Origin: Thermoguttaceae bacterium
GTDB lineage: Bacteria; Planctomycetota; Planctomycetia; Pirellulales; Thermoguttaceae
Assembly: GCA_017937485.1 (NCBI GenBank)
Contig: JAGBDN010000007.1
Span: 14,689-78,688, forward strand
Direction of reading: 5' to 3'
DNA length: 64,000 nt
Shown: positions 3,225 to 57,061 of the stretch, one piece after another
Layout: each line of letters begins with the position of its first letter
Position numbering within the stretch: position 1 is the first letter of the stretch
Program-made: the position numbers and the translations under genes
Notes under the pieces: generated by a model
What the model saw: the letters and a program-made list of their open reading frames with translations, nothing else
Told to the model about the DNA's origin: nothing
The model's database searches: none

Positions 3225-4229
<1,005 letters not shown>

Positions 4230-11496: not shown

Positions 11497-11540
11497 GCGT
11501 TAACGCGGGACGGCGAAGGAAAACGTCGCCGGAAATCGCG

Positions 11541-12145: not shown

Positions 12146-13165
12146 TTAGAACGTTTCCGTTTCGCCGCCCTTGGCCGTGCTGGCGGCCGCCCAAACGTCG
12201 AGGTTGATCGTATCGCTGACGAAACGAACGGAACCGTCGGCCATCGCGACGTTGACGCCGCCGGAGTGTCGACTGCGCGCCGAGATAATGATCGCCGCGT
12301 CGAGCGTTTTGTCGGTCGCCGGCGCGAAAATCGCGTTCGCGGCGCGGGTCGGAATGCAGCCGAGATAGTCCATTTCTTGCGTGTTCGGCGTGAAGAACGC
12401 GGAGTAAGCGCACCCCCAAGGATACCAAAGGTTGCCGCGTTCGTCGGCGGTCGCTTTGCCGTTAATGTCTTGCGATTTGCTAACTTGGATGATTTCCGAC
12501 ATCGCCATCGTGTTCGACGTTCCGTCGGTGATCGCCGCCATCGGTTGGCAACGGTAACCTTGGCCCTGGTAGCTGCCGCAACGGAAAATCGCCTCTTTAT
12601 ACTGAACGACGCGGTCGCCGTAAGTTACCCATTCGCGCCAACCGTTAATAACGGTCGCGTCGCCGGACGAACTCCATTGCGACGTGCCGGTTTTGCCGAC
12701 GCAAACGACGTAATTGTGTTGGCACCAACCGTTCGCGTTGTCTTTGTACATCTGCCAAGAGTCGCTCGGGCAGCAGTACGTCGTAACGCGTTTTTTGCAG
12801 AAATAGGAGTCGTTGGCGCCCCAACCGGCGTTTCCGGCTTTGGTCGGAATGCCGTCGTAGAGCGTCGTTTGTTCGATGAACGGAAGCAAACAGCGCGCCC
12901 AGGTCGTTTCGTGCGCCCGTCCGGAGCCGGTGAAAGACGCGACCGGGAATTTTCCGTGCGCGTCGACGTAGTTGTGCATTCCGAGCATGCACTGCTTGAA
13001 ATTGTTCGTGCATTGCATTCGACGCGCGGCTTCGCGGGCCGCTTGCACCGCCGGGAGAAGAAGACCGATCAAAATACCGATGATCGCGATGACGACCAAC
13101 AGTTCGACAAGCGTAAAACCGAAACGTAATTCGCGACGCGATTTAACATTAGCGGCGTAATTCAT
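12146..13165 (-). CDS. DUF1559 protein with prepilin-type N-terminal cleavage/methylation segment
   Basis: N-terminus RFGFTLVELLVVIAIIGILIGLLLPAVQAAREAARRMQCTNNFKQ and C-terminal SRHSGGVNVAMADGSVRFV, the typical planctomycete family. AAGGAG RBS present. Confidence 0.9.
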   Translation of the reverse strand: MNYAANVKSRRELRFGFTLVELLVVIAIIGILIGLLLPAVQAAREAARRMQCTNNFKQCMLGMHNYVDAHGKFPVASFTGSGRAHETTWARCLLPFIEQTTLYDGIPTKAGNAGWGANDSYFCKKRVTTYCCPSDSWQMYKDNANGWCQHNYVVCVGKTGTSQWSSSGDATVINGWREWVTYGDRVVQYKEAIFRCGSYQGQGYRCQPMAAITDGTSNTMAMSEIIQVSKSQDINGKATADERGNLWYPWGCAYSAFFTPNTQEMDYLGCIPTRAANAIFAPATDKTLDAAIIISARSRHSGGVNVAMADGSVRFVSDTINLDVWAAASTAKGGETETF

Positions 13166-13309
13166 AAGACGCTCCTTGAATTAAATGTATAAAATATGGA
13201 AAACGACGCGCAAAATTATTAGAAAACAAAAGGAATACTAAAATTTACGGCGTCGTAAATCGTCTGGAAAATAGGATTAGGGGATTAACGAGAAAAGGTC
13301 GATAATTAA

Positions 13310-13338
13310 ATTATAAAAAGGCCGACGGCGAATTGCAA
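13310..13338 (-). promoter_or_regulatory. Sigma70-like promoter (TTGCAA-17-TATAAT) for the DUF1559/lipoprotein pair
   Basis: Read on the minus strand inside an AT-rich spacer. About 145 nt upstream of the ATG at 13165. Confidence 0.5.
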
Positions 13339-13400
13339 CTTTTTTTGTCTTAATTTTAAGTGATTTTTGGAAAAATTTTTATTTTTTGACGCGTTCGCCG

Positions 13401-13449
13401 AGAAAAAACGCCGCGTTCCGAATCAAAAATATTCCGAACGCGGCGTTTT
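13401..13449 (-). terminator. Intrinsic terminator after the Gfo/Idh/MocA gene
   Basis: Long stem AAAACGCCGCGTTCGGAAT / ATTCCGAACGCGGCGTTTT, followed by TTTTTTCT on the minus strand. Confidence 0.6.
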
Positions 13450-13523
13450 GGCGTTAAAATAGGCGGGCGGCGGGGAATAGCAGGTTCGCCGGTCGCGCCG
13501 CCGTTCTTGCGGAAAATGGGCGA

Positions 13524-14567
13524 TCAGCCGAGCTTCACCGTCGCGCCCTTGCGAGCGGCTTCGTACACGGCGCAAATGACTTCGACGCTGCGGCGGCCTT
13601 CGCGACCGTCGATTTTCGGCGTTCGACCGTTTTCGATCGCGTCGAGAACGTCGGCGAATTGCTTGGCGTGCGCGTGATGCCCGATCGCGGCCGGGTCGGC
13701 GGCGCCGCCTCCTCCGGACAGGCGGTTCGTCATCGACTCGCGAATTTCCGCGTCTTCCGGGCGCGACTCGGCGAAGTCCCACTTGACGACGTCTTCCTCT
13801 TCGATGACCGCGGAGCCCTTGTCGCCGTGCAGTTCGATGCGTTTCAGGTAGCCCGGGTAAGCCGCCGTCGTCGCTTCGAGCAAGCCGAGCGCGCCGCTTT
13901 TGAAACGCAACGACGCGACCGCGACGTCTTCGACTTCGATGTTCTCGTGCGCGACGAGCCCGGTCAGCGCGGCGACTTCCGCGACGTCGCCCATCAGCCA
14001 AAGGAGGAGGTCGACGCTGTGAATCGCTTGGTTCATCAGCGCGCCGCCGCCGTCGAGCTTCCAAGTGCCGCGCCAAACGCCGCTGTCGTAATATTGTTGG
14101 GTGCGGTACCACTTCACGATAGCGTCGCCGAGCGTTTGTTTGCCGAATCGGCCCGCTTCGACCGCTTCTTTCATCAATATACTAGAGGGGTGGAAGCGGC
14201 TCGGGAAGACGGTCGAAAGGACGACGCCCGCTTTGTCGCAAGCGTCGATGATTTCGTCGCAACGTTCCGGAGTGATTTCGAGCGGTTTTTCGACGATAAC
14301 GTGTTTGCCGGCTTTCGCGGCGGCGACCGCCGGGTCGAGGTGCGCGCCGCTCGGGGTTCCGATCGTAACGATTTCGACGTCCGGGTCGGCGAGGAAGGCT
14401 TTGAAGTCGGAGTAAGGTTTGCAACCGAATTCTTTCGCGAGGCGTTCGGCGGCCAGCGGAAGCGTGTCGTAGCAGGCGACGAGTTCGGCGCCGATTTCGC
14501 GAATGGCGCGGGCGTGAAAGGTCGCGATCATCCCGCAACCGACGATACCGAATTTTTTGATTTTCAT
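13524..14567 (-). CDS. Gfo/Idh/MocA-family NAD(P)-dependent oxidoreductase
   Basis: N-terminal KFGIVGCGMIA Rossmann motif, EKPL motif, and typical length of 347 aa. Confidence 0.9.
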   Translation of the reverse strand: MKIKKFGIVGCGMIATFHARAIREIGAELVACYDTLPLAAERLAKEFGCKPYSDFKAFLADPDVEIVTIGTPSGAHLDPAVAAAKAGKHVIVEKPLEITPERCDEIIDACDKAGVVLSTVFPSRFHPSSILMKEAVEAGRFGKQTLGDAIVKWYRTQQYYDSGVWRGTWKLDGGGALMNQAIHSVDLLLWLMGDVAEVAALTGLVAHENIEVEDVAVASLRFKSGALGLLEATTAAYPGYLKRIELHGDKGSAVIEEEDVVKWDFAESRPEDAEIRESMTNRLSGGGGAADPAAIGHHAHAKQFADVLDAIENGRTPKIDGREGRRSVEVICAVYEAARKGATVKLG

Positions 14568-14652
14568 CTTTGTTTTCTTTCGAAAGCGCGTTGTTTGAAT
14601 TTGTCGTCAAAAATAACGCCGGAACCGCGCCGCGGCGGGCGCCGATTTTTTG

Positions 14653-14681
14653 ATTATAACGGAATCGGAGCGAAAAAACAA
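14653..14681 (-). promoter_or_regulatory. Sigma70-like promoter (TTGTTT-17-TATAAT)
   Basis: Read on the minus strand, about 86 nt upstream of the ATG at 14567. Confidence 0.45.
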
Positions 14682-14874
14682 GCGGCGCGGCGATTTTCTT
14701 TTTTCTTGTCGACGTTCGGCTTGTAAAATCCGCGGAAACGGAAAAACGATTTTGTTTGTTAAAATCGTTTAATTTGAACGGCGTTTTGGCCGATATGTGA
14801 AGGGAAGGAGTCGACCGAAAGCGGCGCGCGGACGGTCGTCGGGCGTTATCGTTCATTTTTGCCAACGACGTTAT

Positions 14875-17490
14875 ATGCGAAAATTAAGCAATAAAGAGAG
14901 ACGCGGCGTTTCGTTGCCGAGCGGCGTTCGCCGCTTGAAAGGCGCGGTCGTTTTGACGGCGGCGTTAGCGGCTTTTTTTCCGTCTTCGCCGTTACAAGCG
15001 CAAGAATCGCCGAGCGTCGCGGTTCCGTTTTACTCGTTGGACGCTTCGAACGACGAGGCGCAAACGCCGCGACCGGCTCGAACGGCGTCGGCGTATTCGT
15101 CGAAAGCGATCGGCCCGACCGTCGAGGCGTCGCGACCGATTTCGTTGGGCCCGCGTCGCTCGACGTTGCCGATTGAGGACGTCGCGGAATTTTCAAGCGA
15201 ACCGGAATTGAACGGAGACGTTTTCGACGCCGATTTAACCGTCGACGCGAGTTTGGACGTCGCGGAGGACGCGTCCGTCGCCGATGAATCCGCGACCGTC
15301 GAGCAAATCGCCGACGAGTGTTTTTTCGCGCTCGATCCGTATTCGTCGCTCTTTATCGATTATCCGCCGACCGCCGATTGGACGAACGCGGCGCTGTTGC
15401 GCGTCGACGAGATTTTGCCGCTTCTGGCGACCGAGCCGGAGCGAGCGGCGGCGATTATTAAAAAGTTTCGCGCGGAAATCGCCGCCTCGGAGCGAATTAA
15501 GGACGCTATTGTCGCGGCCGATCCGGCGTCGAAGTCGATTTCCGTTTTCGGCGACGCGAACGACGGCGAATCGGCGAAGAAAGACGCCGCGCCGACGTTG
15601 GAAACGCGTTATTCGCTCGAACAACGTTTGACCCTTTTCGAAGCGTTCCGTTGCGCGCTCGACCGTCGGGCGTTCGTTTGGGGACGCGCCGCCGAGTTCT
15701 TCGCGGCGAAGAATCGAGGCGAACTTGTCGCGGCGGGAGAAATTTCGACCGCCGAACTCGCGCGGATTCGGGAAACGACCGCCGCGGCGCAAGCGTTTTT
15801 CGGCGATTCCGAAGTCGGGCGCAATTGGCGAACGAGTTTTGAAATCGACTTGTTGTTAATCGACGTCGAGCGAACGCTCGAACTCGCGACTTCGAAGTCG
15901 GCGACGGGCGGGACGGCGAACGGAAACGATTCTCGCGACGTCGAGCGAACGCGGCGGACGAACTTTTTGCGCGACCGTTTGAATTCCGTTTGTTATAAGA
16001 TCGAAAAAACGCCGATGACGCCGGAGCAACGCCGCGTCTTCGACCGTTCGCCGCTTAACGTTTGGGTCGCGACCGTCGCGCCGTTTGCTTGCGACCGCGC
16101 CGAACCGTTGGCGTTGTTGCTCGAATTTGAGAAATACGAACGCGACGCCGGGGGAGAAATCGGGCGAACGTTGCAACAAAGCGCGCGGCGGATGACGACT
16201 TCGCGTTCCGAAGTTTGCCGTCGTTTCGGGAAAGCGTTCGACGTCGTGTACGATAATCCGAACGCGAAGGCTTACGTTTCCGAAGCGTTAATCAATCGCT
16301 TGTTGCCGATTCGCGACCCGGAATTTTCGGTCGTTCAGGAAACGGTCTTGAACAATCCGGTCGCGGGACGCCGTCGCGCCGACACGCAGGTCGCGATCGA
16401 GCTGATTCCCGATCCGTCGCGTTTGCTAATGAACTTGAACGTTTTCGGGCGCGTCGTCGCGTCGACGAGTTCGAACGTTTTTCCGGCGAAACTTTACAAC
16501 CAAAGTTACGCGACGTATTTTGGACAAAAAACGCTTGAATGGCGCGACGACGGATTCGCGTATTCGCCCGCGGTCGTTTCGGCGGAGTCGATCAACAAAT
16601 TGGGCGGCGTTCAAACCGACGTCGACTTCATCCCGTTGGTCGGCGATTTGACGCGCGAAGTGGTGCGGAGCCAATACGAGGCGAAACAAGGGGCGATTCG
16701 CTCCGAAATGAAGACGAAAGTCGCTCGCGAAGCTCGAGCGCGCATCGACGCCGAAGCGAACGAGCGTTTCGACGCGGTCAACGCTCGAATGCGCGCGAAC
16801 TTTTTCGCCGATTTAGAGCGGCTCGGGCTTTCGCTCAAAACGCAACGTTCGAAGACGACCGACGAATGGTTGCTCGCGTCGTTGCGTTTGGGAACCGATT
16901 TTTCGCTCGGTTGCCAAACGACGGAGCCGCCGACGCTTCCGGGCGCGTTCGCCGACGTGAAGTTGCACGAGTCGGCGGTCAACGCCGCGTTGGAACGTTT
17001 GGAACTCGGCGGAAAAACGCTGACGCCGTCGGAAACGCTCGCGTATTTGGCCCAAAAATTGAATAAACCGGGGTTGGCCGAGGTCGCGATCGAGGAAAAC
17101 GAACTCGTTTTGGCGTTCGCCGAGACCGATCCGGTCGTCGTTCGGTTCTTTGAAGACCGCGTCGAATTGCGGTTGAAGTTCGCGGCGTTGACGCTTGGCG
17201 ATAAGAATTGGGAAAACGTCGACGTTTGCGTTTCGTATCGCCCGACCGTCGCCGACGACGGAACGACCGTTTTCGAACGAGACGGCGTCGTCGAACTCGA
17301 CGGCCCCGGCGGAATGCGGGCTCAACTCGCGTTGCGTTCGATCTTTTCGAAGGTTTTTCCGGCGTCGAAGGCGTTCGACTTGCGTCCGAAAATTTTCGAT
17401 TCCGACGAGCGTTTCGCCGGATTGGCGCTCGGATTGGCGCGCGTTTCGCGAGGCTGGTTCGCGGTTTCCGTCGTTAATTTGCAACAATAA
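14875..17490 (+). CDS. Large secreted protein of unknown function (871 aa)
   Basis: Coding-like composition throughout. Start set at ATG 14875 (MRKLSNKERR..), which is followed by a signal-like segment AVVLTAALAAFFPSSPLQAQ. The track ORF begins at an upstream GTG. I recognise no domain. Confidence 0.75.
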   Translation: MRKLSNKERRGVSLPSGVRRLKGAVVLTAALAAFFPSSPLQAQESPSVAVPFYSLDASNDEAQTPRPARTASAYSSKAIGPTVEASRPISLGPRRSTLPIEDVAEFSSEPELNGDVFDADLTVDASLDVAEDASVADESATVEQIADECFFALDPYSSLFIDYPPTADWTNAALLRVDEILPLLATEPERAAAIIKKFRAEIAASERIKDAIVAADPASKSISVFGDANDGESAKKDAAPTLETRYSLEQRLTLFEAFRCALDRRAFVWGRAAEFFAAKNRGELVAAGEISTAELARIRETTAAAQAFFGDSEVGRNWRTSFEIDLLLIDVERTLELATSKSATGGTANGNDSRDVERTRRTNFLRDRLNSVCYKIEKTPMTPEQRRVFDRSPLNVWVATVAPFACDRAEPLALLLEFEKYERDAGGEIGRTLQQSARRMTTSRSEVCRRFGKAFDVVYDNPNAKAYVSEALINRLLPIRDPEFSVVQETVLNNPVAGRRRADTQVAIELIPDPSRLLMNLNVFGRVVASTSSNVFPAKLYNQSYATYFGQKTLEWRDDGFAYSPAVVSAESINKLGGVQTDVDFIPLVGDLTREVVRSQYEAKQGAIRSEMKTKVAREARARIDAEANERFDAVNARMRANFFADLERLGLSLKTQRSKTTDEWLLASLRLGTDFSLGCQTTEPPTLPGAFADVKLHESAVNAALERLELGGKTLTPSETLAYLAQKLNKPGLAEVAIEENELVLAFAETDPVVVRFFEDRVELRLKFAALTLGDKNWENVDVCVSYRPTVADDGTTVFERDGVVELDGPGGMRAQLALRSIFSKVFPASKAFDLRPKIFDSDERFAGLALGLARVSRGWFAVSVVNLQQ

Positions 17491-35054: not shown

Positions 35055-35082
35055 TTTACAAAGGGGGCGTTTGCGTTATAAT
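35055..35082 (+). promoter_or_regulatory. Sigma70-like promoter (TTTACA-16-TATAAT) for tRNA-Leu
   Basis: The -10 ends 13 nt before the first tRNA nucleotide. Confidence 0.55.
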
Positions 35083-46275: not shown

Positions 46276-46321
46276 CGCTTCTTTTAGCGAAGAGCGGGGA
46301 AAATAGGCAAAATAAAAAAGA

Positions 46322-46357
46322 AACGCGGCGGTTCCGAGCGGTTCCGTCGCGTTTTTT
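46322..46357. terminator. Bidirectional terminator between convergent ymdB and the alpha/beta hydrolase gene
   Basis: Stem ACGCGGCGG / CCGTCGCGT, flanked by an A-run and TTTTTT. Confidence 0.55.
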
Positions 46358-46381
46358 AAGCGCCGATAATCGATAGACGTT

Positions 46382-47242
46382 TTATTTGTTGAATTTCTCG
46401 ACGAACTCGACGATCGGCGTCGGGTCTTTCAGCGAGTGCGGGTGATGGTCGTTGCCGGGTTTAAGAATCAACTCGACCGGGCCGCCGACCGCTTCGTAAC
46501 GCTCTTTGAAGAGTTTCGCGTTTTCCGGGAACGGAACGACGCGGTCGGAGTCGCCGCAAACGAGGAAGACGCCGACTTTCGCCGCCGCCATCTTCTTTTG
46601 GCCGTCGGTATTGTCGATCGGGTTGAGCGAGTATTTCATCGCTTCTTCTTGCGTCAACTCGTAACTTTGCAGGACGGAGTTCCAGTCGCCGTCGCTGCGC
46701 TTTCCTTCGCCGTATCCGCCGGGCCAACTTTTGAAGTCGAGAACCGGGTTGTCGATGTAAATCGTCGCGACTTGCTCCGGATACGCCATCGCCCAGTTGA
46801 CGGTGTAAAGGCCGCCGCGGCTCATCCCTTCGAGGTTCGTTTTCTTGGCGAAGCCGTGTTCTTTCGTCAGATAAAGGTAAAAATCTTGCCAAAGCGCGAC
46901 CGATTTCGGCGACCCCATCAGCGGCGCGGAATTAATGTAAGCGACGGCGTAACCGCGGTTTAACATCGCGACGTCGAATTGCGGTTCGTGTCCGAAGAAA
47001 CGAGCGCGCCAAATCCAAGGCTTGCCGGGCGCCGCCTCTTTCGGGAAGACGAGTTTCGCGGCGCGCCCTTGGAATTGGAAGTCGTTGCATTGGAAACCGT
47101 TCCATTGGCCGACTTTGCCGGGGAAGGTCGAAACCGGCGCGGCGGGCGTTTCTTGCGCGAGCGTTTGCGTCGGCGAACAAAGAGCGGTCGCGGCGGTCAA
47201 CGCGGCGACGATTAACGACGTGAAAAATTGTTTGCGGTTCAT
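46382..47242 (-). CDS. Secreted alpha/beta hydrolase (esterase-like)
   Basis: Signal peptide MNRKQFFTSLIVAALTAATALCSP, nucleophile elbow GMSRGG, and late D and H residues. AAAGGAG RBS. The upstream 275 codons of the track ORF overlap the activase gene and are spurious. Confidence 0.82.
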   Translation of the reverse strand: MNRKQFFTSLIVAALTAATALCSPTQTLAQETPAAPVSTFPGKVGQWNGFQCNDFQFQGRAAKLVFPKEAAPGKPWIWRARFFGHEPQFDVAMLNRGYAVAYINSAPLMGSPKSVALWQDFYLYLTKEHGFAKKTNLEGMSRGGLYTVNWAMAYPEQVATIYIDNPVLDFKSWPGGYGEGKRSDGDWNSVLQSYELTQEEAMKYSLNPIDNTDGQKKMAAAKVGVFLVCGDSDRVVPFPENAKLFKERYEAVGGPVELILKPGNDHHPHSLKDPTPIVEFVEKFNK

Positions 47243-47424
47243 AAAGCTCCTTTCGAAACGCTTGGAACGCGTCGATTGCGGGATTGGTTGGGGAAAATGT
47301 TCGTATTGTTCGGCGGGTTGGGCGAAATAGGGCGGCGGGGGAAGCGGCGCAAACGGTGAAAACAACGGAAATTGCGGGGGTGGCGGAAACAACAAAAGCG
47401 GCGAAAGCGGCGGGGGCGGCGACG

Positions 47425-48300
47425 CTAAGGCAAATCGGGGTCGAATCGGCGGTCTAAAAGGGCGTATTTCGCGCCCGCCGCGACGTTGTACGGGAGGAAC
47501 TCGACGCCGAGCGCCGACGGAACGCCGTCGACGAGCCGCTCGACCGCCGCGCGCTCCGCCGGGGAGTCGTTGACGCCGGGAATTAACGGCGTTCGGACGA
47601 CGAACGGACGACCGCTCGCGCAAAGTCGCCGCAGATTCGCCAAAATCGGCGCGGAGTCGACGCCGGTCCAACGCCGCGAACGCTCCGGGTCGAGAATCTT
47701 GACGTCGAAGTAAACTAAGTCGACGCAAGACGTTAGCGCGTCGAAGACTTCCGGCGACGCGAACCCGCAAGTTTCGAGCGCGACGTGAATTCCGGCGTCG
47801 CGCAACGACCGCGCCAGTTCGACGGCGAACTCCGGTTGGAAAAGCGGTTCGCCGCCGGTCAAGGTAACGCCGCCGCCGGAAAGCTCGAACAGGTCGCGTT
47901 GCCGCAAGAGCCGCTCGACGAGCGTCGGGACGTCCGTTTCCCAACCGCAAAGGTTCCGCGCGCCTTGCGGGCAAAGGTCGACGCAACGTCCGCAAGCGAC
48001 GCAAACGTCGCGACGGGAACGGCTTAACGCCGCGTCGCAAATTTTCTCGCAAGCGCCGCAACCCGAACAACGCGAACGGTTTAGCAAAAGCTCCGGCGTC
48101 GGCGCTTGACTCTCCGGATTATGACACCAACGGCAGCGGAGCGGGCAGCCTTTGAAAAAAACGCTCGTTCGAACGCCGGGGCCGTCGTGCAGCGCGAACT
48201 CGCGAACTTCGAAAATAAGGCCGCGAACCGGTCGAGGCGGGCGGTCGGACGCGGCGATTTCGGCGGAGTTGGCGGCGGATTTTCGGGAAAAATCGGACAT
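47425..48300 (-). CDS. Glycyl-radical enzyme activating enzyme (radical SAM)
   Basis: CPLRCRWCHN (CxxxCxxC, 48124-48147) plus two ferredoxin-like motifs, CSGCGACEKIC and CVACGRCVDLC. GGVTLTGGEP SAM motif. Confidence 0.9.
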   Translation of the reverse strand: MSDFSRKSAANSAEIAASDRPPRPVRGLIFEVREFALHDGPGVRTSVFFKGCPLRCRWCHNPESQAPTPELLLNRSRCSGCGACEKICDAALSRSRRDVCVACGRCVDLCPQGARNLCGWETDVPTLVERLLRQRDLFELSGGGVTLTGGEPLFQPEFAVELARSLRDAGIHVALETCGFASPEVFDALTSCVDLVYFDVKILDPERSRRWTGVDSAPILANLRRLCASGRPFVVRTPLIPGVNDSPAERAAVERLVDGVPSALGVEFLPYNVAAGAKYALLDRRFDPDLP

Positions 48301-48389
48301 TCGGCGAACGACGGGGAGCGAGAACGGCGGACGGGCGGGCGATTAAGCGTTGAATTGGGCGGTTTGGGGGAACGGGGAAGGATGCGGCG

Positions 48390-50507
48390 TTACGTCGGGA
48401 ACGTCGTTTCGGCGCGGCGGAGGATTTGATCTTGGTAAGGCCGGTCGAGTTCGACGAAGTAACCGCTCCAACCCCAAACGCGAACGATCAGGTTGCGATA
48501 TTTTTCCGGATTTTTTTGCGCGTCGAGAAGGCGGTCGCGGTTAACGGCGTTCAGTTGCATCTGCGCGCCTCCCCGTTTGACGAAAAATTGAACGAGCCGA
48601 GCGACCTTTTCGACGCCGTCGGCGAACGCGAAAACGGAGTCGTGCAGTTCGAGCGTCAACGGGCCGCCGTTGACGACGCGGGTTAAGTCCGGCTTGGCGA
48701 AGGACGCGACGACGCCGACCGGGCCGCGAATCGGAACGCCGAGCGACGGCGCGTAATTCGCCGGAAACGGCTCGCCGCGCCGCCGACCGTCCGGGGACGC
48801 CGGGAGTTCGTTCGCGTGCCAAAGGTAATACATCGCCGAACCGGTTCCGGGACGGAAGACGCCGCCGCGGCAGTTGCGCCGCCCTTCCCAAGAATCGGCG
48901 AAGTCGGCGAGAAGGCGAACCGCGAGCGCGTCCGGTTCCGGCTCGTCGTTTCCCATTTTCGGGAGGCGGCGGGCCCGGGCGAGGAGTTCGGCGGCTTCCG
49001 GGAAGCGCTCGGCGTCGAAATCGGCGTCGAGAATTTCGACGAAACGCGCCGGGCTAACGCGTTTTTCGTCGAAAACGAGCCGCTTGATCGCGAAAAGGGA
49101 GTCGACCGCCGGCGCGACGCCGGTTCCGTGTATTCCGAAATTGACATACTTGCCGCCGGACGCCGCGTCGCGAGCCGCTTCGACGCGACCGTCGCAAAGG
49201 AGCGAAACGAGCGGGCAAGGGAGAACGTCGAAACGTTCGAGCGACTCGGCGATTTCGTCGGCGCGGCGGAAAAGCTCCGCTCGGAAGAGCGCGAGGAAAG
49301 CGTCGAAGTCGTTGTTTTCCGCCGCTTGCGTCGCTTCCGGGGAACGGAGAACCGCGTCGACCGCCGCCGGGAAAGAGACCGCCGCGACGTTCGGAACGTC
49401 GCTCCCGACGCCGGGGATAACGAATTCCCAACAAGCGGCGACGGTGTAATCGCGGGCGTCGGCGAGGTCGTAACCGAGTTTCGTTAAGCCGGGGATAACG
49501 ACGTCGTCGTTGGCGTATTGCGGGAAGCCGAGTCCGAGGCGCGTCAGATCGGTCGCCTTTTTCAGCAAGTCGAACGACGTCGCCGACGAAACGCGGAGGT
49601 TAATTTTCGGGTCGATTAAGCGATTTTGGCCGCAAGCCTCTAAGGCGAGTTCCGTCAAGAGGTTCGACGCGTCGGCGCCGGTCGAATCGCACCCGCCGAG
49701 CATCAAACTTTGACCGTTGTCCCCTTGTTGGACGCCGACGTAAAGGTCGGAATCGCGGTTGAACGAGAGGAAAAATTCGGCGACCAACTCGCGCGCGCCG
49801 TCGCGGTCGAGCCGTCCGGCGGCGAGGTCGGCGTCCAAATACGGAGCGAAAATTTGGTCGAACCGCCCGACGCCGTTGTGATACGCGCCTTCGCACCAAA
49901 GGGAATAATGCAAAATTCGGAAAAATTGGAACGCTTCGAGGAGGGTTCGCGCTCCGCGGCGCGGAACTTGCGCGAGCGTTTCGGCGATTTCGGTCAGTCC
50001 GGCTTGCTCGGCGGCGGCGCGGTACGACTCGGCGAGACGGAGAATCGCGTCGACGCTTGCGAGAGTCGCGGTCAAAAAGTCGATTCCTTCGGCGTCGGAT
50101 TCGGTTTGCGCTTGTTCAAGTCGTTCGACGATTTCGGCGCGGCGAGCGTCGAGCCCGACGGCGATCGTCGCGGCGTAATTCGGACTGACGTTGAAAACGA
50201 CGCCCAACTCGTGTAAATACGCCGACTTGCGCAGCTCCGCCGTTTCCGCGTCGGAACAGCGCGGCGGGAGGTTGCGAACCGTTCGGGTTAGCGCGATTCG
50301 TTCGTCGGGGAGAAAAACGGGCGTCTTCGCTTCTTCGTCGAGGACGGCGATTAAGCCTTCGGCGGCGCGGGCGCAACGGGCGGTCGTTAGGTCGGCGCGG
50401 TTCGGGAGGGCGGCGTTCCAATCGACGTCGCGGCGGAAAGCGGCTTGTTTCTTGGCGACGATAAAGTCGCGCAGGGCGGTTAAACGTTCGCTAAGCGGGG
50501 CGGTCAT
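48390..50507 (-). CDS. Glycyl-radical enzyme, PFL2/eliminase-like, short form (705 aa), substrate unknown
   Basis: C-terminal glycyl motif IVRVWGWSGYFVEL (Gly codon 48471-48473). Thiyl loop TVAACWEFVIPG (Cys codon 49431-49433, Glu two residues later). Directly followed by a dedicated activase. Confidence 0.9.
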   Translation of the reverse strand: MTAPLSERLTALRDFIVAKKQAAFRRDVDWNAALPNRADLTTARCARAAEGLIAVLDEEAKTPVFLPDERIALTRTVRNLPPRCSDAETAELRKSAYLHELGVVFNVSPNYAATIAVGLDARRAEIVERLEQAQTESDAEGIDFLTATLASVDAILRLAESYRAAAEQAGLTEIAETLAQVPRRGARTLLEAFQFFRILHYSLWCEGAYHNGVGRFDQIFAPYLDADLAAGRLDRDGARELVAEFFLSFNRDSDLYVGVQQGDNGQSLMLGGCDSTGADASNLLTELALEACGQNRLIDPKINLRVSSATSFDLLKKATDLTRLGLGFPQYANDDVVIPGLTKLGYDLADARDYTVAACWEFVIPGVGSDVPNVAAVSFPAAVDAVLRSPEATQAAENNDFDAFLALFRAELFRRADEIAESLERFDVLPCPLVSLLCDGRVEAARDAASGGKYVNFGIHGTGVAPAVDSLFAIKRLVFDEKRVSPARFVEILDADFDAERFPEAAELLARARRLPKMGNDEPEPDALAVRLLADFADSWEGRRNCRGGVFRPGTGSAMYYLWHANELPASPDGRRRGEPFPANYAPSLGVPIRGPVGVVASFAKPDLTRVVNGGPLTLELHDSVFAFADGVEKVARLVQFFVKRGGAQMQLNAVNRDRLLDAQKNPEKYRNLIVRVWGWSGYFVELDRPYQDQILRRAETTFPT

Positions 50508-50666
50508 CGGCGGCTCTCTTGGGAAAAAAGGCTGAATGGGAAGATTGGGAAAACGGCGCGAAAAATTGGACGGGAAAACGGAGCGGAAATTTAGGGACGC
50601 GAAACGGCGGCGCCGCGACGGCGGGAAAGCGCGTCGCGGCGTTGTTAAACGGCTAAGTCGCGGGTT

Positions 50667-52088
50667 TTACGCGGCTTTGTCGGCTTTCGGCTTCCAACGC
50701 TCTTCGACGTTTTCGATCGTGCCGCCCTTCGTTTCCGGCATCAATTTCCAAGCGAAGAAGAACTGGAGCGCCGTCATCGACGCGAAGAAGTAAAACGCGT
50801 ATTGCCCGGACGTTTCGGCGATCATCGGGAACGTCCAGCTAACGGCGGCGCACATAAACCAGTGGGTGAAACTGCCGAGCGCTTGGCCCTTCGCCCGAAC
50901 GGCGTTCGGGAAAATTTCCGAGATAAAGACCCAAATGACCGCGCCTTGCGAGACGCCGAAAAAGGCGATGAAGCCCAAAATCGCCGGAACGACGATAAAG
51001 GAGTTCGCCGCGTCGCCGAGCCCGATTTGCCAAGCGGCCAAGAGGTGCATAATCGTCGTGCCGACGGCGCCGAACATCAGCAGGAAACGGCGGCCGAAAC
51101 GGTCGATTAAGAAGAGCGCGGCGATCGTCGCCAAAAGGTTGACCGCGCCGAGCCCGATCGTAACGCCGAGCGCGGCTTGCTTGCCGATGAACATTTCGAA
51201 AATGCGCGGCGCGTAATAGTTGATCGCGTTGATGCCGGAAACTTGGTTGAACATCGCGACGGCCCAAGCGAGGAAAATCGGCGTAAAGTAAGCCTTTTGG
51301 AAGAGCGGAACGTTTTGGCCGCCTTCGGCTTTCGCAAGGGACGCGGAGATTTCGCCGAGCGTCGTTTCGGGGGAAACGTCGCCGATGCGCGCGAGAACTT
51401 TCTTCGCTTCTTCCGGGCGACCGAAGCGGACGAGTTGGCGCGGGCTTTCCGGAATCGTGAAGAGGAGGAAGAAGAAGAGCGCCGCCGGGAACGCCTCGAC
51501 GCCGAGTTGGAGCCGCCAAATAATCGACTCGAACGGAAGCGGCGTCGACGTAAAGCAAGCCGCGAGGCTTTCGCAAGCGCCGCCGAGCGCGCCGTTCGGG
51601 TTGATTTGCGCGACGTAATAGTTCGAAATGTAAGAAACGAGAATGCCGAGAACGATATTCAATTGGTTCAGCGCGACCAAACGACCGCGCATCGGGCCCG
51701 GCGCCGATTCGACGATGTAAAGCGGAACGACGACCGACGAACCGCCGATCGCGAGACCGCCGAGCCAACGCATAAAGACGAGCGTCGCCCAGTTCGGCGC
51801 GAACGCGCAACCGACCGCCGAAACGAAGTAAAAGACCGCCATAACGATCAAAATCGGCTTGCGTCCAAAAACGTCGGTCGGACGGCCGATTCCGAACGCG
51901 CCGATAATCGTCCCGATCAGCGCGACCGCGACCGTGAAGCCGTGCCAAAAACCGTCCAAACCGTATTCGGTTTGAATCGCTTTTTCGCAGCCGGAAATGA
52001 CGCCGGAGTCGAAACCGAAGAGGAGACCGCCGAGCGCGGAAACGATAACGATGTAAAACAAGTAAGTGCGACCAACGGCGGACGACAT
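50667..52088 (-). CDS. MFS transporter, sugar porter family
   Basis: GGLLFGFDSGVISG, GRKPILIV, PESPRQL .. and 12 predicted TM segments. Start MSSAVGR at 52088. Confidence 0.9.
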   Translation of the reverse strand: MSSAVGRTYLFYIVIVSALGGLLFGFDSGVISGCEKAIQTEYGLDGFWHGFTVAVALIGTIIGAFGIGRPTDVFGRKPILIVMAVFYFVSAVGCAFAPNWATLVFMRWLGGLAIGGSSVVVPLYIVESAPGPMRGRLVALNQLNIVLGILVSYISNYYVAQINPNGALGGACESLAACFTSTPLPFESIIWRLQLGVEAFPAALFFFLLFTIPESPRQLVRFGRPEEAKKVLARIGDVSPETTLGEISASLAKAEGGQNVPLFQKAYFTPIFLAWAVAMFNQVSGINAINYYAPRIFEMFIGKQAALGVTIGLGAVNLLATIAALFLIDRFGRRFLLMFGAVGTTIMHLLAAWQIGLGDAANSFIVVPAILGFIAFFGVSQGAVIWVFISEIFPNAVRAKGQALGSFTHWFMCAAVSWTFPMIAETSGQYAFYFFASMTALQFFFAWKLMPETKGGTIENVEERWKPKADKAA

Positions 52089-52320
52089 AACGCAAACCTC
52101 GTAAAATAACGGATTAAAACGGGAGCGGTTGGGGAATAAAACTCTCGTCGCGGAAAAGAAAACGAAAACGGCGGTTCGCGGGCGGTCGGCGGTTGGGACG
52201 AGCGGCGCGAAACGGCGAAAGCGCAAGGACGTTGAAAACTCCTAATTTGCCCCGCTTGCCTAAACCGACGAAGCGTCGACAAAAACGCAAAAAAGCGAGC
52301 CCGACGAACGGAACTCGCTT

Positions 52321-52349
52321 ATTATAACGCGACTAAGGGGCGGCGTCAA
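52321..52349 (-). promoter_or_regulatory. Near-consensus sigma70 promoter (TTGACG-17-TATAAT) for the MFS/GRE operon
   Basis: Read on the minus strand. The -10 lies 233 nt upstream of the MFS ATG. A hairpin plus T-run follows immediately at 52281-52320. Confidence 0.55.
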
Positions 52350-52382: not shown

Positions 52383-52425
52383 AGAAAAACGCGCCGACGC
52401 TTCGCGGTTGAAACGTCGGCGCGTT
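52383..52425 (-). terminator. Intrinsic terminator after the beta-propeller gene
   Basis: Stem AACGCGCCGACG / CGTCGGCGCGTT, followed by TTTTCTTG on the minus strand. Confidence 0.55.
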
Positions 52426-52466: not shown

Positions 52467-53684
52467 TTATTTTTTCGCGTCGGCTTTCTTGTATTGCGCT
52501 TTCAGGACGGCGTAATCGATTCCGGAGAGCGTCCCCGGCGGGTCGACCTTGCTGTTTTTGAGGCCCGGGAACGGCCAGTCGAAGTTCGCGAAAATCATCT
52601 TGTCGCCGAAACGGCAGGCTTCGCAAGGTTGGTCGAGGAGACCGTCCATCCCGTCGACGTCGCCGTTGATCAGAACGATTTGCGGGTCGACTTTTTGCCC
52701 CTTGGCGACCGGCGCGAACGCCCAAACGGCGTTGTTGCAAGAGTCGTTGATGAGAACGCGGTCGGCTTCCGCGTCGTAAAGCATTCCGTCGCAGCATTCG
52801 AGACGAACGCCCTTGAACGCGCCCGCGTCGACGCCGGTTTGCTTCGTCGCGTCGAAAACGACGACTTCTTGGTTGCGCGGGTACGTGCCGTCGGCGTTCG
52901 GGTAAACGGCGTAAACGAAGCCGTTGCCGAAGTTGCCGAACCAAACGACGCCGTTTTTGTCGACCGCCAAACCGTCCGCGCCGGTGTTGTCGCCGCGACC
53001 GAGCTTAACGACTTTCGGCGCCGCCAAGCAACGCGGATCGTCCGGAGTCGCCGAGATTTTGATCGGCGCGACGCCGTCGCGGCCCGCTTTCGTCGCTTCT
53101 TTAGCGTCGATCATGAAGAGACCGCCGGAACCGACGATTCCGTTCGTCCCGTCTTCGAGGTCGAAACAGGAGTCGGTGTAGAACATCTTGTCGCCGCTCC
53201 AAACGATTCCGTTCGCGAGCTTGCACCCTTCGACGACCGTTTGGATTTCGCCGGTCGCTTTGCCGTCTTTGAAAACGACGCGCAAAATGCGGGATTGGAA
53301 GTCTTTAGAGTGGAAATATTGGTTGTCGCAAACGTAAAGGTCGCCGTCCGGGCCGAAGTCGAGCCCCATCGGGCCGCATTGACCGGTCGACTTCAAAATC
53401 GGGTAGTCGAGAACCTTTTTAAAGGAACCGTCTTTCGCGACCGCGACGAGATAACCGCCCTGCGCCGAGTCGGCTTTCTTCATATCGGCGTCCATTCGCC
53501 CGAAGTTCGGGACGTTCAGATAAAGAACGTTCGGGTCGAAGTCGGCGACCGTCATTCCGTCCGGCGTGTAGTTGGCGGCGCCGAGGTCGGAGAAGAGGGT
53601 CGTTTTCGGTTCGGCGGCAAACGCGACGGCGCCGCAAAGGAGAACGCTCGTCGAAAGAGCGAGGGTCGTTTTCGAAATTTTCAT
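52467..53684 (-). CDS. Secreted beta-propeller protein (SMP-30/gluconolactonase/LRE-like or NHL-like)
   Basis: Signal peptide MKISKTTLALSTSVLLCGAVAFA. Repeated blade-like segments (PMGLDFGPDGDLYV, ANGIVWSGDKMFYTD, ADGLAVDKNGVVWFGN). The family call is moderate. Confidence 0.78.
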   Translation of the reverse strand: MKISKTTLALSTSVLLCGAVAFAAEPKTTLFSDLGAANYTPDGMTVADFDPNVLYLNVPNFGRMDADMKKADSAQGGYLVAVAKDGSFKKVLDYPILKSTGQCGPMGLDFGPDGDLYVCDNQYFHSKDFQSRILRVVFKDGKATGEIQTVVEGCKLANGIVWSGDKMFYTDSCFDLEDGTNGIVGSGGLFMIDAKEATKAGRDGVAPIKISATPDDPRCLAAPKVVKLGRGDNTGADGLAVDKNGVVWFGNFGNGFVYAVYPNADGTYPRNQEVVVFDATKQTGVDAGAFKGVRLECCDGMLYDAEADRVLINDSCNNAVWAFAPVAKGQKVDPQIVLINGDVDGMDGLLDQPCEACRFGDKMIFANFDWPFPGLKNSKVDPPGTLSGIDYAVLKAQYKKADAKK

Positions 53685-53856: not shown

Positions 53857-56800
53857 TCATTCGAGCGTCGGAACGACGACTTCGCCGCGACGTTGCGCGT
53901 CGAGCGACTCCATCTCGTAAGCGCCGAAGAAGTCGCAGTTGTTGTCCATCCAAAGGGCGAGCGCGCGTTTTTCCTCGTCGGAAAGTTTGACGTCGTAGTG
54001 CCCTTCTTTCAGGACTTGCCAAAGTCGGGAGCGGTTGGCGCCGAATTGGCCCGGGAACGTGCGCGCCGGAGCGAAGCTGTTCCAAGCGCCGCCGTGCGTC
54101 GGTTGTTCCTTCATCGGCGCGCTCGGGTTGTTGTTCCCGTTGCCGGCGACGTAAACGTAAGGACGCAGGTTGAAATACGACGTCGTGAAGTATTGGCCTT
54201 CCGGACCGCGACCGAGTTCGAACGTTTCGCCGGCTTTCGCTTTTTCGGCGTGGCAGTCGACGCAATGACGGTCGAGAATCGGTTGCACTAAGCGCGGGAA
54301 ATTGAACGGGTTCGAACCGGGAACGTCCGGCTTGATTTGCGACGGCGCGCGTTGGAACGCGAGCGGCGCCGCGACGTCGGCGTTTTGCGCCGTGTTGTGG
54401 CGACCTTCGTGGCAGCCGAGGCAGGTCAGCGTTTCGCCCGGGTGAACGTAAGCGGCGCTTCGCATCGTTTGCACCGCGACGCCGTTTTCGTCCAACGCTT
54501 GGAAGTAGAACGGAACGCCGGTCGGCGCTTCGAAACGAACGCTCCCGTCTTCCTCGACCGGAACCGTGCCGAGAACCTTGCGGGCGCCGTTTTCGCCGGC
54601 GTAACCGATCCAAGGCTGGTTCGCGTTCCAAGTCGTTTTCGGGAGAACTTGGACGATTCGCAACTCCTTAATTTTCGTTCCTTCCGGGAACGGACGGTTC
54701 GTTTTGTAAACGTCGACGACGCCGATGGTCGCGGTTTTCGGCAACTCGGCGGGGATTTCGAAACGGTCTTTTTGCGCTTCCGGAATCCCGACGAGCGTTT
54801 GGTGCGGAACGACCGGCGGAACCGGGCGCGTCTCGACCGCTCGCGGCCATTGGCAGCTGATTTTCTCGTCGCGGTGCAGGAGAACCTTGTTCCCGAACGC
54901 GTCGAGGAGGTAAAGACCGTAACGGTTCCCTTCGCCCTTGGCCGAACCGCTGAACGCGTCGTAAACGACGAGGAAGAAGTCTTCGCTAAGCGGGTAAGGT
55001 TGACCGAAGTTGTGCGGCGGGCCGTGCGTGCCGATCTCCGCTTCCGGGAAGAGCTGTTCCGGCGTGATTCGTTGAATCGGCCCCATCGGGTCGCCGCCGT
55101 TTTCGTCGTCTTCGGCGGTCGGGTCGATCAAAATGACGGAGCCGAAGTTTTGCGTGTGGTGCCCGGACGCCGTCCCGGAGAGGAGAACGGAGTCGGGAAC
55201 TTGGTTCAACGTCGTTTCGAAGTGCGGGCGCGAACGTTCGTTTTCGGAGTAGTTCCCCTGAATCGCGCGAGCGTCGCGACCGTCCGGGAACGTAACCCAA
55301 GGATGGTGCGCTTGGTTGAAACCGCGGTCGACGTAATCCCAACGGGTGTAAACGATCATCCCGGCGGCGTCGATCGTCGGCGCCCATTCGTTCGTTTCGT
55401 GAACGCTAAGCGGAACAATGTCGCTTCCGTCGGCGTTCATCGAGTGGAGCGTGTAACTCGGGCAGGGGCGCGCGTGGCAGCGACCGTAACCGCCGCGACG
55501 TTCCGAGATAAAGACGATTCGACCGTTCGGCATAAGGTAAGGATCGAAGTCGTTCCAAGGGCCGTCGGTCAGTTGAATGAGGTCGGTTCCGTCGATATTG
55601 ACGCGGAAGAGGTGGTAGCAGTTGTCTTCCGTCCAAACGTAGGAGTGGCGTTGCGGCGACGTGTCCGCGGCGGCGAAGTAAATCGTTTTGCCGTCGTAAG
55701 TTAAGTGCGGCGAGAGGAAACCCCAGCTCGAGTCGAGCTTGCGCCCCTTCAAGCGACCGTTCGAAACGACCGCGTTTTCGAGGACGTTAACGACTTCCGG
55801 CTTCTCCGAAAAGGCGTTTTTGAGGACGTAAAGGCCGCCGCCCGGGCGCGCGTGGAAACCGAAGAACTGGTCGCACATATGGTTCCCTTGCTTCTCCGGC
55901 TCCGGATTGTAGTGACGCTTGATGAAGAGAATATCGTCGAACGTCAAGAGCGGGTTTTTGAGCGCGACGGAGCGGCGAATCTTAACCGCTTCGACGAAAA
56001 GGGTTTGGCGTTCCGCTTTTTGCTCGACCGGGGTCGCGTCGGCGCGTTTTTTGAGGTCGGCGAGCGTCGCGACGTCGGCGGCGAGTTCCTTTTCGTCGAG
56101 CGTTTCGAGGAGCGCTTCGACGAGACGGTCGATTCGGCGCAACGCGACGTCGAGCGGGTCGCGGTCGGTTTTGAGAATCGTCGAAGCCGGGTCGCGGGCG
56201 TCTTTGGCGACGTAATCGCTCGTCGGCCCGGCGGCGATTTGTCGCGTCAACGAAAGAAATTCGCGCGCCGCTTCGAGCGTTTGCGGGTCGGTGGTTTCGT
56301 CGTAAATTTTGCCGTCGGCGCCGACGAAGAGCGGGCGAACGATCGCGAGGTCGTCCGCGCCTTCCGCCGAAACTTCAAAGCGCGCGTCGCCGTAAACCGC
56401 GTGGTCGTGGGCGTAACCTTCCGTTCCGGTTTCGAGTTCGAGGAGAAGCGTCGACTTGCCGGTCAAGTCGAGTTCGCAAACTTTCGCCGCTTCTTTCCCC
56501 TTCATAAACCCGCTGCGCCAAACGAGTTGACCGTCGGCGAACGCGAGAAACTCCATATGGCCCTGACCGTTCGTTTCGTCGGCGATTCCGACTTCGGTAA
56601 TGAAGCGAACCGAGCCGGTTTCCGGGAGGCGAACGACGAGGCGGCCCGGCGAGTGCGAGCCGACGCCGCGTTCGAAGGTTTTTCCGGCGACGATCAGCGG
56701 GTTGCCGTCGACCGTTTTGCCGTCTTGGGCGGCTTTGTAACCGCATTCGACGGCGCTTAAGTCGAGGTCGTCGAGATAGACGGTCGTTTTACCGTCGTTG

Positions 56801-56865
56801 GAAAAGGCGGTCGCGGCGCCGAGCGTCGCGGCGAGGACAGCGGATAGGAAAACGGGGACGCGCAT
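53857..56865 (-). CDS. Secreted multidomain protein: NPCBM-like carbohydrate-binding module, PD40/TolB-like beta-propeller region, C-terminal domain with two CxxCH motifs
   Basis: Start MRVPVFLSAVLAATLGAATA at 56865. DDLDLSAVECGYKAAQDGKTVDGNPL..GVGSHSP is NPCBM-like. YDGKTIYFAA..PNGRIVFISER..NADGSDIVPLS are PD40-like. CLGCH is at 54409-54423 and CVDCH at 54250-54264. Confidence 0.85.
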   Translation of the reverse strand: MRVPVFLSAVLAATLGAATAFSNDGKTTVYLDDLDLSAVECGYKAAQDGKTVDGNPLIVAGKTFERGVGSHSPGRLVVRLPETGSVRFITEVGIADETNGQGHMEFLAFADGQLVWRSGFMKGKEAAKVCELDLTGKSTLLLELETGTEGYAHDHAVYGDARFEVSAEGADDLAIVRPLFVGADGKIYDETTDPQTLEAAREFLSLTRQIAAGPTSDYVAKDARDPASTILKTDRDPLDVALRRIDRLVEALLETLDEKELAADVATLADLKKRADATPVEQKAERQTLFVEAVKIRRSVALKNPLLTFDDILFIKRHYNPEPEKQGNHMCDQFFGFHARPGGGLYVLKNAFSEKPEVVNVLENAVVSNGRLKGRKLDSSWGFLSPHLTYDGKTIYFAAADTSPQRHSYVWTEDNCYHLFRVNIDGTDLIQLTDGPWNDFDPYLMPNGRIVFISERRGGYGRCHARPCPSYTLHSMNADGSDIVPLSVHETNEWAPTIDAAGMIVYTRWDYVDRGFNQAHHPWVTFPDGRDARAIQGNYSENERSRPHFETTLNQVPDSVLLSGTASGHHTQNFGSVILIDPTAEDDENGGDPMGPIQRITPEQLFPEAEIGTHGPPHNFGQPYPLSEDFFLVVYDAFSGSAKGEGNRYGLYLLDAFGNKVLLHRDEKISCQWPRAVETRPVPPVVPHQTLVGIPEAQKDRFEIPAELPKTATIGVVDVYKTNRPFPEGTKIKELRIVQVLPKTTWNANQPWIGYAGENGARKVLGTVPVEEDGSVRFEAPTGVPFYFQALDENGVAVQTMRSAAYVHPGETLTCLGCHEGRHNTAQNADVAAPLAFQRAPSQIKPDVPGSNPFNFPRLVQPILDRHCVDCHAEKAKAGETFELGRGPEGQYFTTSYFNLRPYVYVAGNGNNNPSAPMKEQPTHGGAWNSFAPARTFPGQFGANRSRLWQVLKEGHYDVKLSDEEKRALALWMDNNCDFFGAYEMESLDAQRRGEVVVPTLE

Positions 56866-57061
56866 AAAGTTTCTCCGAAGTTGCAAAGCTCCGTCGCCGA
56901 ACGCCGCCGAGGACGGGCGCGGCGACTCGATGTAACGACGCGGTTGCGAATAGATAAATTGGGGAAAACGGGGAAACAAGGCGAGCGAAAACGGTCGCGC
57001 TTGCCCGTTCGCCGTCGGCGGTCGCGGGGAATTGGGCGACAGTCGGCGGCGATCAACCGAT

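Follow-up and report, generated by a model that had tools for sequence, protein, structure and literature searches.

A window of 64,000 nucleotides of DNA from a Thermoguttaceae bacterium (contig JAGBDN010000007.1; "the window" hereafter denotes this whole stretch) contains the gene of a short glycyl radical enzyme (GRE) between those of a sugar transporter of the major facilitator superfamily (MFS) and a GRE activase. Four genes lie in line on the minus strand, and the open reading frames and Pfam/NCBIfam domains agreed with an initial annotation of this DNA in the position of all four. In the order of transcription, they encode a XylE/GLUT-like sugar-porter MFS protein of 473 aa (50667-52088), the GRE of 705 aa (48390-50507), a GRE-activating radical S-adenosylmethionine (SAM) enzyme of 291 aa (47425-48300), and a secreted alpha/beta hydrolase of 286 aa (46382-47242). 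Over the GRE, the window was 97-99% identical to contigs of ruminant-gut Thermoguttaceae metagenome-assembled genomes (MAGs).

The GRE matched the Pfam domains PFL-like (5e-83) and Gly_radical (1e-16) and possessed the sequence features of the GRE superfamily, namely the RVxG[FWY] glycyl motif, the Cys-loop cysteine of the 10-stranded barrel, and an adjacent radical SAM activase. The catalytic residues Cys359 and Glu361 were located in AACWEF and Gly679 in RVWGWS, and Cys359 aligned with Cys433 of glycerol dehydratase (GD) and with the Cys-loop cysteine of Escherichia coli PflD and YbiW. When the members of the family were compared, C359, W360, E361, N106, H210, and N373 were invariant in 80/80, and G679 was retained in RVWGWS in all 78 members with a complete C-terminus. 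Invariant polar residues that may line the pocket are N106, H210, Q260, Q261, D263, N264, Q266, Q330, Y331, N333, D334, D370, N373, N456, H460, T555, Y561, H564, E620, and H622. The triplet C359-W360-E361, present in every one of the 80, corresponds to the Cys-x-Glu (CXE) motif that defines the 1,2-eliminase/isomerase class of GREs (PMC13450708). The family also showed invariant motifs of its own (YVGVQQGDNGQS, PQYxNDD, NFGxHG, GTGSAMYY, and NGGPLTxExHDS), and about 50-60 N-terminal residues of PflD, YbiW, and GD were missing from it. Furthermore, several residues of the GD active site were replaced. His164 of GD, which is also His in 1,2-propanediol dehydratase (PD) and lies in GQGH in PflD and in GDAH in YbiW, was Asn106 in 80/80 members; Asp447 was Asn373 (80/80) and Ser282 was Asn/Cys211, while H281 was kept as H210.

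The scores against the NCBIfam equivalog models were all about a quarter of the cutoff or less: 255 bits vs a cutoff of 1109 (23%) for NF007437 (PflD), 249/1100 for HypD, 209/1050 for CutC, 232/1000 for HpfG, 201/1000 for HpsG, 173/1100 for IAD, 138/1150 for HPAD, and 53.6/994 for TIGR01255 (pyruvate formate-lyase, PFL). The broad subfamily model TIGR01774 was not reached either (311 bits vs a cutoff of 678). The best sequence matches in the PDB were those to glycerol dehydratase, propanediol dehydratase, and PflD (253, 239, and 235 bits, respectively), with PFL at 64-65 bits; identity was 31.5% to E. coli PflD, 27.9% to YbiW, and 22-32% to characterised GREs. When an AlphaFold2 model of the GRE (pLDDT 82.8, pTM 0.86) was compared by Foldseek, template modelling (TM) scores of 0.78-0.83 at 21-26% identity were obtained for GD, PD, CutC, PflD, HypD, and others, none of which was clearly closest. 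Assignment to a subfamily by fold was rejected because eliminases and isomerases scored alike. Taken together, the CXE loop, the failed cutoffs, the low identities, the replaced residues, and the motifs of its own show that the GRE is of the eliminase/isomerase class and belongs to no characterised isofunctional group, as the initial annotation had supposed. Full-text literature searches found no paper on the clade of the 705-aa GRE, and a 2026 review of the superfamily gives no function for such a clade (PMC13450708).

The transporter encoded upstream matched Pfam Sugar_tr (4e-102) over residues 14-465 and scored 304 bits against TIGR00879 (cutoff 238), which places it in the sugar porter family. 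It was closest to XylE (232 bits), and the XylE equivalog NF007484 was not reached (316.6 bits vs a cutoff of 608). Seven of nine sugar-contact residues of XylE were kept (F24, Q168, Q289, N294, Y298, W392, and W416), and these kept contacts point to a neutral pyranose-like or polyol-like molecule as the probable cargo. Although it belongs to the same family as the XylE/GlcP/GLUT porters, the protein differs from them at Q288 (changed to Asn) and Q415 (changed to His) and in its co-inheritance with a GRE. The activase scored 285 bits against TIGR02494 (cutoff 174) and contained Radical_SAM, Fer4_12, and Fer4 domains, with CPLRCRWC (CX3CX2C) and two ferredoxin-type Cys motifs.

To survey the conservation of this neighbourhood, 80 genome loci, designated below by L numbers, were searched by tblastn with the window proteins. 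Of 68 assessable loci, 28 had an MFS ortholog (54-72% identity) directly upstream of the GRE gene and on its strand, corresponding to 28/56 loci of the Planctomycetes-Verrucomicrobia-Chlamydiae (PVC) group and 0/12 Clostridia loci. The activase gene was adjacent to the GRE gene in 48/73 assessable loci. The full MFS-GRE-activase trio occurred in 25 of the 80 loci, across Planctomycetota, Kiritimatiellae, Lentisphaerae, and Verrucomicrobia. In some relatives (L001, L093), stop and start codons of trio genes overlapped by 4 nt. The identities of GRE and MFS to the window proteins co-varied (r = 0.90, n = 26, to which shared phylogeny contributes too), as expected from co-inheritance. When close homologs of the MFS were taken as the starting point, GRE and activase genes followed in two of the four assessable cases. 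In a third, the next gene was of the Melibiase family and the GRE of that MAG lay on another contig, and the fourth homolog stood alone. Hence, of the four genes that the initial annotation had described as an apparent operon, the trio was recovered in four PVC lineages, and the esterase was retained only in near-identical genomes. Two observations had been named in advance as speaking against the proposal, namely placement of the GRE within a known cluster and lack of conservation of the neighbourhood; what we found was a conserved trio and scores far below every cutoff.

A protein database search listed at least 120 relatives of the GRE with at least 834 bits (55-97% identity, 679-709 aa), of which the public names were absent or generic ("pyruvate formate lyase family protein", "formate C-acetyltransferase"). 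When species-representative genomes were scanned for two peptide motifs characteristic of the family, tblastn confirmed at least 585 stretches of the GRE family. The carriers were Planctomycetota, Kiritimatiellae, Lentisphaerae, and unclassified Verrucomicrobia, as well as Clostridia at 47-50% identity, and most came from rumen, hindgut, human gut, and anaerobic digesters. One carrier is in culture, Oligosphaera ethanolica DSM 24202 (Lentisphaerae; L029). Its locus was considered as a guide to the pathway and proved uninformative, as it is broken up by restriction-modification and Schlafen-type genes. Three loci labelled Clostridiales, Barnesiella, and Faecalibacterium (L052, L056, and L064, respectively) carried a GRE 53-54% identical to that of the window, which is the range of the PVC loci; L056 and L064 also had the PVC-type gene order GH36-MFS-GRE-activase (GH36, glycoside hydrolase family 36), and L052 had neither MFS nor activase adjacent. 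All three seem to be contigs of PVC bacteria that were binned into the wrong genomes. In the Lentisphaerae loci L004-L006 (around 8001-10061), the GRE gene overlapped both a TlyA/FtsJ-type methyltransferase gene upstream and a Sua5/YciO gene downstream. Neither MFS nor activase was found within 8 kb of these GRE genes, so that the activase must be encoded elsewhere.

Glycosidase genes of GH36 type recurred beside the GRE in both PVC bacteria and Clostridia, two unrelated groups, with more than 20 loci in all. Sixteen PVC loci had a gene for a divergent Melibiase-like protein of 700-1000 aa, which in 15 of them flanked the module immediately and in the same direction. In five Clostridia loci, raffinose-synthase/Sip1-like GH36 genes directly followed the activase gene, and classical GH36 genes were present in five further loci. 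In PDB searches, these GH36-type neighbours matched Thermotoga GalA (222 bits) and the plant alkaline alpha-galactosidase/raffinose synthase RS6 (158 bits). Signal peptides were found on the PVC copies and not on the Clostridia copies, so that the presence or absence of the GH36 signal peptide matches the presence or absence of the MFS in the two groups. This pattern would fit a glycoside that is cut outside the cell in PVC bacteria, with the product imported by the MFS, and cut inside the cell in Clostridia, where no such MFS would be needed. Sugar-type regulators (AraC and a GntR/LacI hybrid) were also linked to GRE loci. Furthermore, esterases or lipases of several families were encoded near the GRE in the window and in L089 and L003 (GDSL), L093 (AXE1), and L082 (S9-like).

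On balance, we favour the interpretation that MFS, GRE, and activase constitute a conserved catabolic module of three genes with which strictly anaerobic bacteria, most of them associated with the gut, use an imported sugar-like molecule. The mechanism we propose draws on the conserved catalytic residues and on established GRE chemistry (PMC13450708). Alpha-galactosidase-type enzymes of GH36, exported in PVC bacteria and cytoplasmic in Clostridia, would cleave plant or host glycosides, and the XylE/GLUT-like proton symporter would import a neutral monosaccharide-like product, for which a hexose or pentose analogue, an anhydro- or deoxy-sugar, and a cyclitol or polyol are candidates. The radical SAM activase would place a glycyl radical on Gly679, and the thiyl radical of Cys359 would then take a hydrogen from a carbinol carbon of the substrate. 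Glu361 is expected to deprotonate the hydroxyl group, upon which a beta leaving group (OH, ring or ether oxygen, or amine) would depart and Cys359 would give the hydrogen back. Accordingly worded, the enzyme would be a 1,2-eliminase or isomerase acting on a carbohydrate-derived substrate, and this substrate is probably one that has not yet been assigned to a GRE. Since the link with GH36 suggests a substrate from alpha-galactoside breakdown, we further propose, more tentatively and with somewhat less than even confidence, that enzymes of the clade act directly on a monosaccharide, a cyclitol, or a fragment of a glycoside that GH36 has released and that is free and unphosphorylated, and that they use radical chemistry either to open its ring or to eliminate at a C-O (or C-N) bond. 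Such a substrate could be, for example, a galacto-configured sugar, a fragment of galactosyl-glycerol, or else inositol or O-methyl-inositol derived from galactosyl-cyclitols.

Several observations weigh against this interpretation. About half of the PVC loci and all Clostridia loci lacked an adjacent MFS, and some GREs were isolated among housekeeping genes, as in the Lentisphaerae arrangement tlyA-GRE-yciO. When the genes next to the GRE were clustered de novo for 82 loci (L003 and L005 in addition to the 80 surveyed above), no conserved kinase, aldolase, or dehydrogenase was found among them; as no downstream enzyme is consistently linked, the pathway cannot be reconstructed. The flanking glycosidases also differed between loci (GH127, GH63-like, GH78, and GH28), and this variety leaves the specific link to alpha-galactosides suggestive, not proven. 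Finally, the window itself had no GH36 link and no canonical glycoside hydrolase among the Pfam-scanned open reading frames at roughly 22-62 kb. Thus the proposal of the initial annotation, radical chemistry on an imported sugar-like molecule released by surrounding glycosidases, holds in outline through the trio and the GH36 genes of other loci, and its local part, a glycosidase in the window, does not for the roughly 22-62 kb that were scanned.

The closest precedents are YbiW and PflD, the C-O lyases and GRE isomerases of "anhydroglycolysis", which act on 1,5-anhydroglucitol-6-phosphate and 1,5-anhydromannitol-6-phosphate delivered by transporters of the phosphotransferase system (PTS) (PMC13450708, PMC12441222). 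Their E. coli loci are frwCB-pflDC-frwD plus fsaB, and ybiWY plus fsaA. Because these enzymes (2024) already tie GREs to sugar transport, the wider claim drawn from the initial annotation, that GREs have no link to sugar uptake and no sugar substrates, was outdated; its narrower form, concerning an MFS partner, still stands. Like the module in the window, they combine a CXE GRE and an adjacent dedicated activase with a sugar-uptake operon in gut anaerobes, and the fold (TM about 0.8) and the lack of a microcompartment are also common to both (PMC13450708). Uptake, however, is by PTS in one case and by a proton-coupled MFS in the other, and with an MFS instead of a PTS the substrate would arrive unphosphorylated. 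Furthermore, YbiW and PflD are linked to a fructose-6-phosphate aldolase (FSA), whereas the module has no consistently linked aldolase and has GH36 partners elsewhere in the family. The GRE of the window also differs from the two in its low identity (28-32%), in the replacement of His by Asn, and in its shorter N-terminus. It is therefore set apart from the YbiW/PflD family by the equivalog cutoff and by the PTS/FSA-aldolase context.

It is nevertheless conceivable that the enzyme is an analogue of YbiW and PflD that ring-opens 1,5-anhydroglucitol or 1,5-anhydromannitol to 1-deoxyfructose or its 6-phosphate, the substrate being free or phosphorylated by an unlinked kinase after import by the MFS without a PTS. 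PflD was among the best PDB sequence matches, the CXE loop is conserved, YbiW and PflD are likewise gut-bacterial and encoded in sugar-transport operons, and an FGGY kinase and a class II aldolase were found near one Clostridia locus. In addition, 1,5-anhydrohexitols would be expected as cargo of a GLUT/XylE-type porter, and GLUTs have been proposed as passive carriers of 1,5-anhydroglucitol (PMC12441222). Against these points stand the NF007437 score, the Asn found in 80/80 family members at the position of the His common to PflD, YbiW, GD, and PD, and the absence of a linked FSA-type aldolase or sugar phosphatase, unlike in E. coli. The recurrent partner, a GH36 alpha-galactosidase, moreover yields no anhydrohexitols. 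We consider this analogue unlikely.

Another explanation would be that adjacency reflects no functional coupling, the GRE acting on a non-carbohydrate, for instance a sulfonate or a derivative of an amino acid, and MFS and GH36 genes being simply frequent in carbohydrate-rich genomes. The many loci without the MFS, the Lentisphaerae copies among housekeeping genes, and the close MFS homolog that stood alone are in line with it. It is quite unlikely in view of the occurrence of the trio in four phyla or classes, with overlapping stop/start codons and co-varying divergence, and of GH36-type genes flanking the GRE in both PVC and Clostridia despite differing gene order and transporters; the linked AraC and GntR/LacI-type sugar regulators also argue against it. 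Regarding the other GRE 1,2-eliminases, CutC, HypD, HpyG/HpzG, HplG, IslA/IseG, and HpsG/HpfG share the fold and the CXE logic with the GRE of the window (TM 0.71-0.81); they differ from it in equivalog scores of less than a quarter of the cutoffs, and its context contained no genes of amine, proline, or sulfonate pathways.

We also examined whether the enzyme could be a divergent B12-independent glycerol or 1,2-propanediol dehydratase, for which glycerol that esterases and galactosidases release from galactosylglycerol or galactolipids would be one possible substrate. Galactolipids are abundant in rumen forage, and esterases or lipases of various families lay near several loci. Glycerol dehydratase (1R8W) and 1,2-propanediol dehydratase (5I2A, 9RCO) were the best sequence and structure matches, GD being first in the PDB search, TIGR01774 the best model (311 bits), and both enzymes top Foldseek matches; the CXE motif, H281, and the glycyl loop are common to all. 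The resemblance, however, is limited. The identity was 24-26% in structural alignments, TIGR01774 remained far from its cutoff of 678, and Foldseek did not separate GD and PD from CutC, PflD, and HypD. The general-acid His164 of GD and the ligands of the C3-OH and C2-OH groups, Asp447 and Ser282, are all replaced, and the family has its own motifs. Likewise, the shell of a bacterial microcompartment (BMC) and the aldehyde and alcohol dehydrogenases that usually accompany GD and PD were not found around the family: no BMC shell gene and no linked aldehyde or 1,3-propanediol dehydrogenase appeared in the Pfam-annotated contexts, and tblastn with a PduA query gave no BMC-H match in the window or in 86 loci (L001-L086), as the initial annotation had noted for the window. 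Bacterial glycerol uptake, moreover, normally proceeds via GlpF and not via a sugar porter. A dehydratase of this kind is thus very unlikely. A pyruvate or 2-ketobutyrate formate-lyase, as the database names and the Pfam PFL-like domain would have it, deserves almost no credence, since the Cys-Cys pair of PFL is replaced by Ala358-Cys359 followed by the eliminase-type Glu361, and both TIGR01255 (53.6 bits vs 994) and PFL itself (64-65 bits) scored very low.

With the three-gene module for an imported sugar-like molecule retained as the favoured interpretation, the pairing of a GRE with an MFS importer, and a substrate that is probably not among the known GRE substrates, remain new here. Earlier new substrate classes of GREs (choline, hydroxyproline, isethionate, and anhydrohexitols) each exposed an unrecognised anaerobic gut pathway. 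If our more tentative proposal, of radical chemistry on a free product of GH36 action, is true, a previously unknown anaerobic carbohydrate pathway would be common to gut Planctomycetota, Kiritimatiellae, Lentisphaerae, and some Clostridia. The clade is large (hundreds of species-level genomes), occurs mainly in little-studied PVC bacteria of ruminant and human guts, and has a conserved and distinctive active site. Its partnership with a monosaccharide-type importer and alpha-galactosidase-type genes narrows the search for the substrate to a tractable panel, and the cultured carrier O. ethanolica DSM 24202 makes the function directly testable.

The signals around the four genes were as the initial annotation had described them. 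A sigma-70-type promoter, TTGACG-17-TATAAT (11/12 match), was present on the minus strand at 52321-52349. In the 64-kb window, four sites of at least 11/12 were found, whereas first-order Markov simulations gave 0.017 expected; they are thus not due to chance in this genome, and this planctomycete seems genuinely to carry near-consensus sigma-70 promoters. The other three 11/12 sites were at 35055-35082 (plus strand), 34939-34912 (minus strand), and 19876-19849 (minus strand), the former two being arranged divergently near 35 kb. A hairpin with a T-run (minus strand, 52293-52320; a 10-bp stem and then TTTTGCGTTT) begins with the first base after the -10 box of the operon promoter. As the operon transcript would begin within its left arm, this hairpin is less likely to be an attenuator than a second terminator or insulator that would stop transcription continuing from the gene upstream. 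The remaining part of the ~230-nt 5' leader (52089-52292, minus strand) has a GAGG Shine-Dalgarno sequence 8 nt before the ATG. No riboswitch or other Rfam family was found in the leader when 45-54 kb was scanned with a permissive cutoff; only two sub-threshold chance matches resulted, both outside the leader. A sub-threshold match to "cow-rumen-1" lay at 47841-47893 (plus strand), antisense in the activase gene, with 22.8 bits (gathering threshold 53.4, E = 0.12), and is most likely chance.

The MFS-GRE, GRE-activase, and activase-hydrolase spacers were 159, 89, and 182 nt, respectively. They were pyrimidine-rich (66-71% C+T) and contained no promoter-like site of at least 9/12 and no hairpin with a T-run, and from these sequence signals we infer that the operon genes are co-transcribed. 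The MFS-GRE spacer contained a stable, GC-rich stem-loop (10+2 bp; 50611-50641, minus strand), and the fold of the spacer had z = -2.5 relative to shuffles. Having no T-run, the stem-loop is not an intrinsic terminator, and may be a processing or stability element. The spacer and its hairpin are lineage-specific, since the MFS and GRE genes overlap or are 9 nt apart in several relatives. The C/U-rich GRE-activase (48301-48389) and activase-hydrolase (47243-47424) spacers folded worse than dinucleotide shuffles (z = +2.5 and +1.05, respectively). No Shine-Dalgarno sequence was evident before the activase gene, and a strong AGGAG preceded the hydrolase gene. A bidirectional intrinsic terminator (46313-46357) lay between the hydrolase gene and a convergent YmdB-like gene. 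The stem of its hairpin (46322-46352), AACGCGaCGG/CCGcCGCGTT, is followed by TCTTTTTT and has an A-run at the opposite side, so that it would serve as a terminator on either strand.

The hydrolase contained the nucleophile motif GMSRG and matched Peptidase_S9 weakly (4e-7), and its N-terminus was signal-like (MNRKQFFTSLIVAALTAATALCSPTQTLAQE). The PDB sequence search gave nothing better than E = 9e-4 and NCBIfam gave no match. In a large database search, the 4527 matches were generic planctomycete alpha/beta hydrolases not linked to GREs, and the family therefore offers no clue to the substrate. The gene stood beside the module only in the near-identical genomes L008 and L009 (97-99% to the window). 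The hydrolase is thus a lineage-specific passenger and not part of the conserved module, and it is probably co-transcribed with the module in this lineage.

The neighbours of the operon in the window were a secreted NPCBM/HZS-alpha/PD40 protein, a secreted SGL-type propeller, a BspA-LRR protein, and housekeeping genes. Immediately upstream lay the gene of the secreted SMP-30/gluconolactonase/LRE-like (SGL-type) beta-propeller protein (52467-53684, minus strand), which is predicted to be separated from the operon by its terminator (52388-52425, minus strand; a 16-bp stem with 10 GC pairs and then a T-run). A role of this gene in the pathway was considered and dismissed on account of its separate, strong terminator, its signal peptide, and its conservation in the near-identical genomes L007 and L008 only. 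At 53857-56901 (minus strand), a large secreted protein is encoded that combines an N-terminal NPCBM carbohydrate-binding module with PD40 beta-propeller repeats and a "hydrazine synthase alpha middle domain". In L094, a gene upstream of an MFS homolog encoded a related HZS_alpha domain joined to an FGE-sulfatase domain.

Finally, a more extended cluster was observed in L082, a Clostridia MAG. Over 291-17003, it encodes co-directionally an FGGY kinase, GH36, a FucI-like isomerase, a class II aldolase, GHL6, an S9-like hydrolase, a glycerate kinase, the GRE, the activase, and two raffinose-synthase-like GH36 proteins, which looks like a complete isomerase/kinase/aldolase route beside the GRE. 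The set of FGGY kinase, FucI-like isomerase, class II aldolase, and glycerate kinase was found only in L082 and its close relative L079. Most of the cluster recurred in L079, and the glycerate kinase gene was also present in L069 and, as a fragment, in L076.

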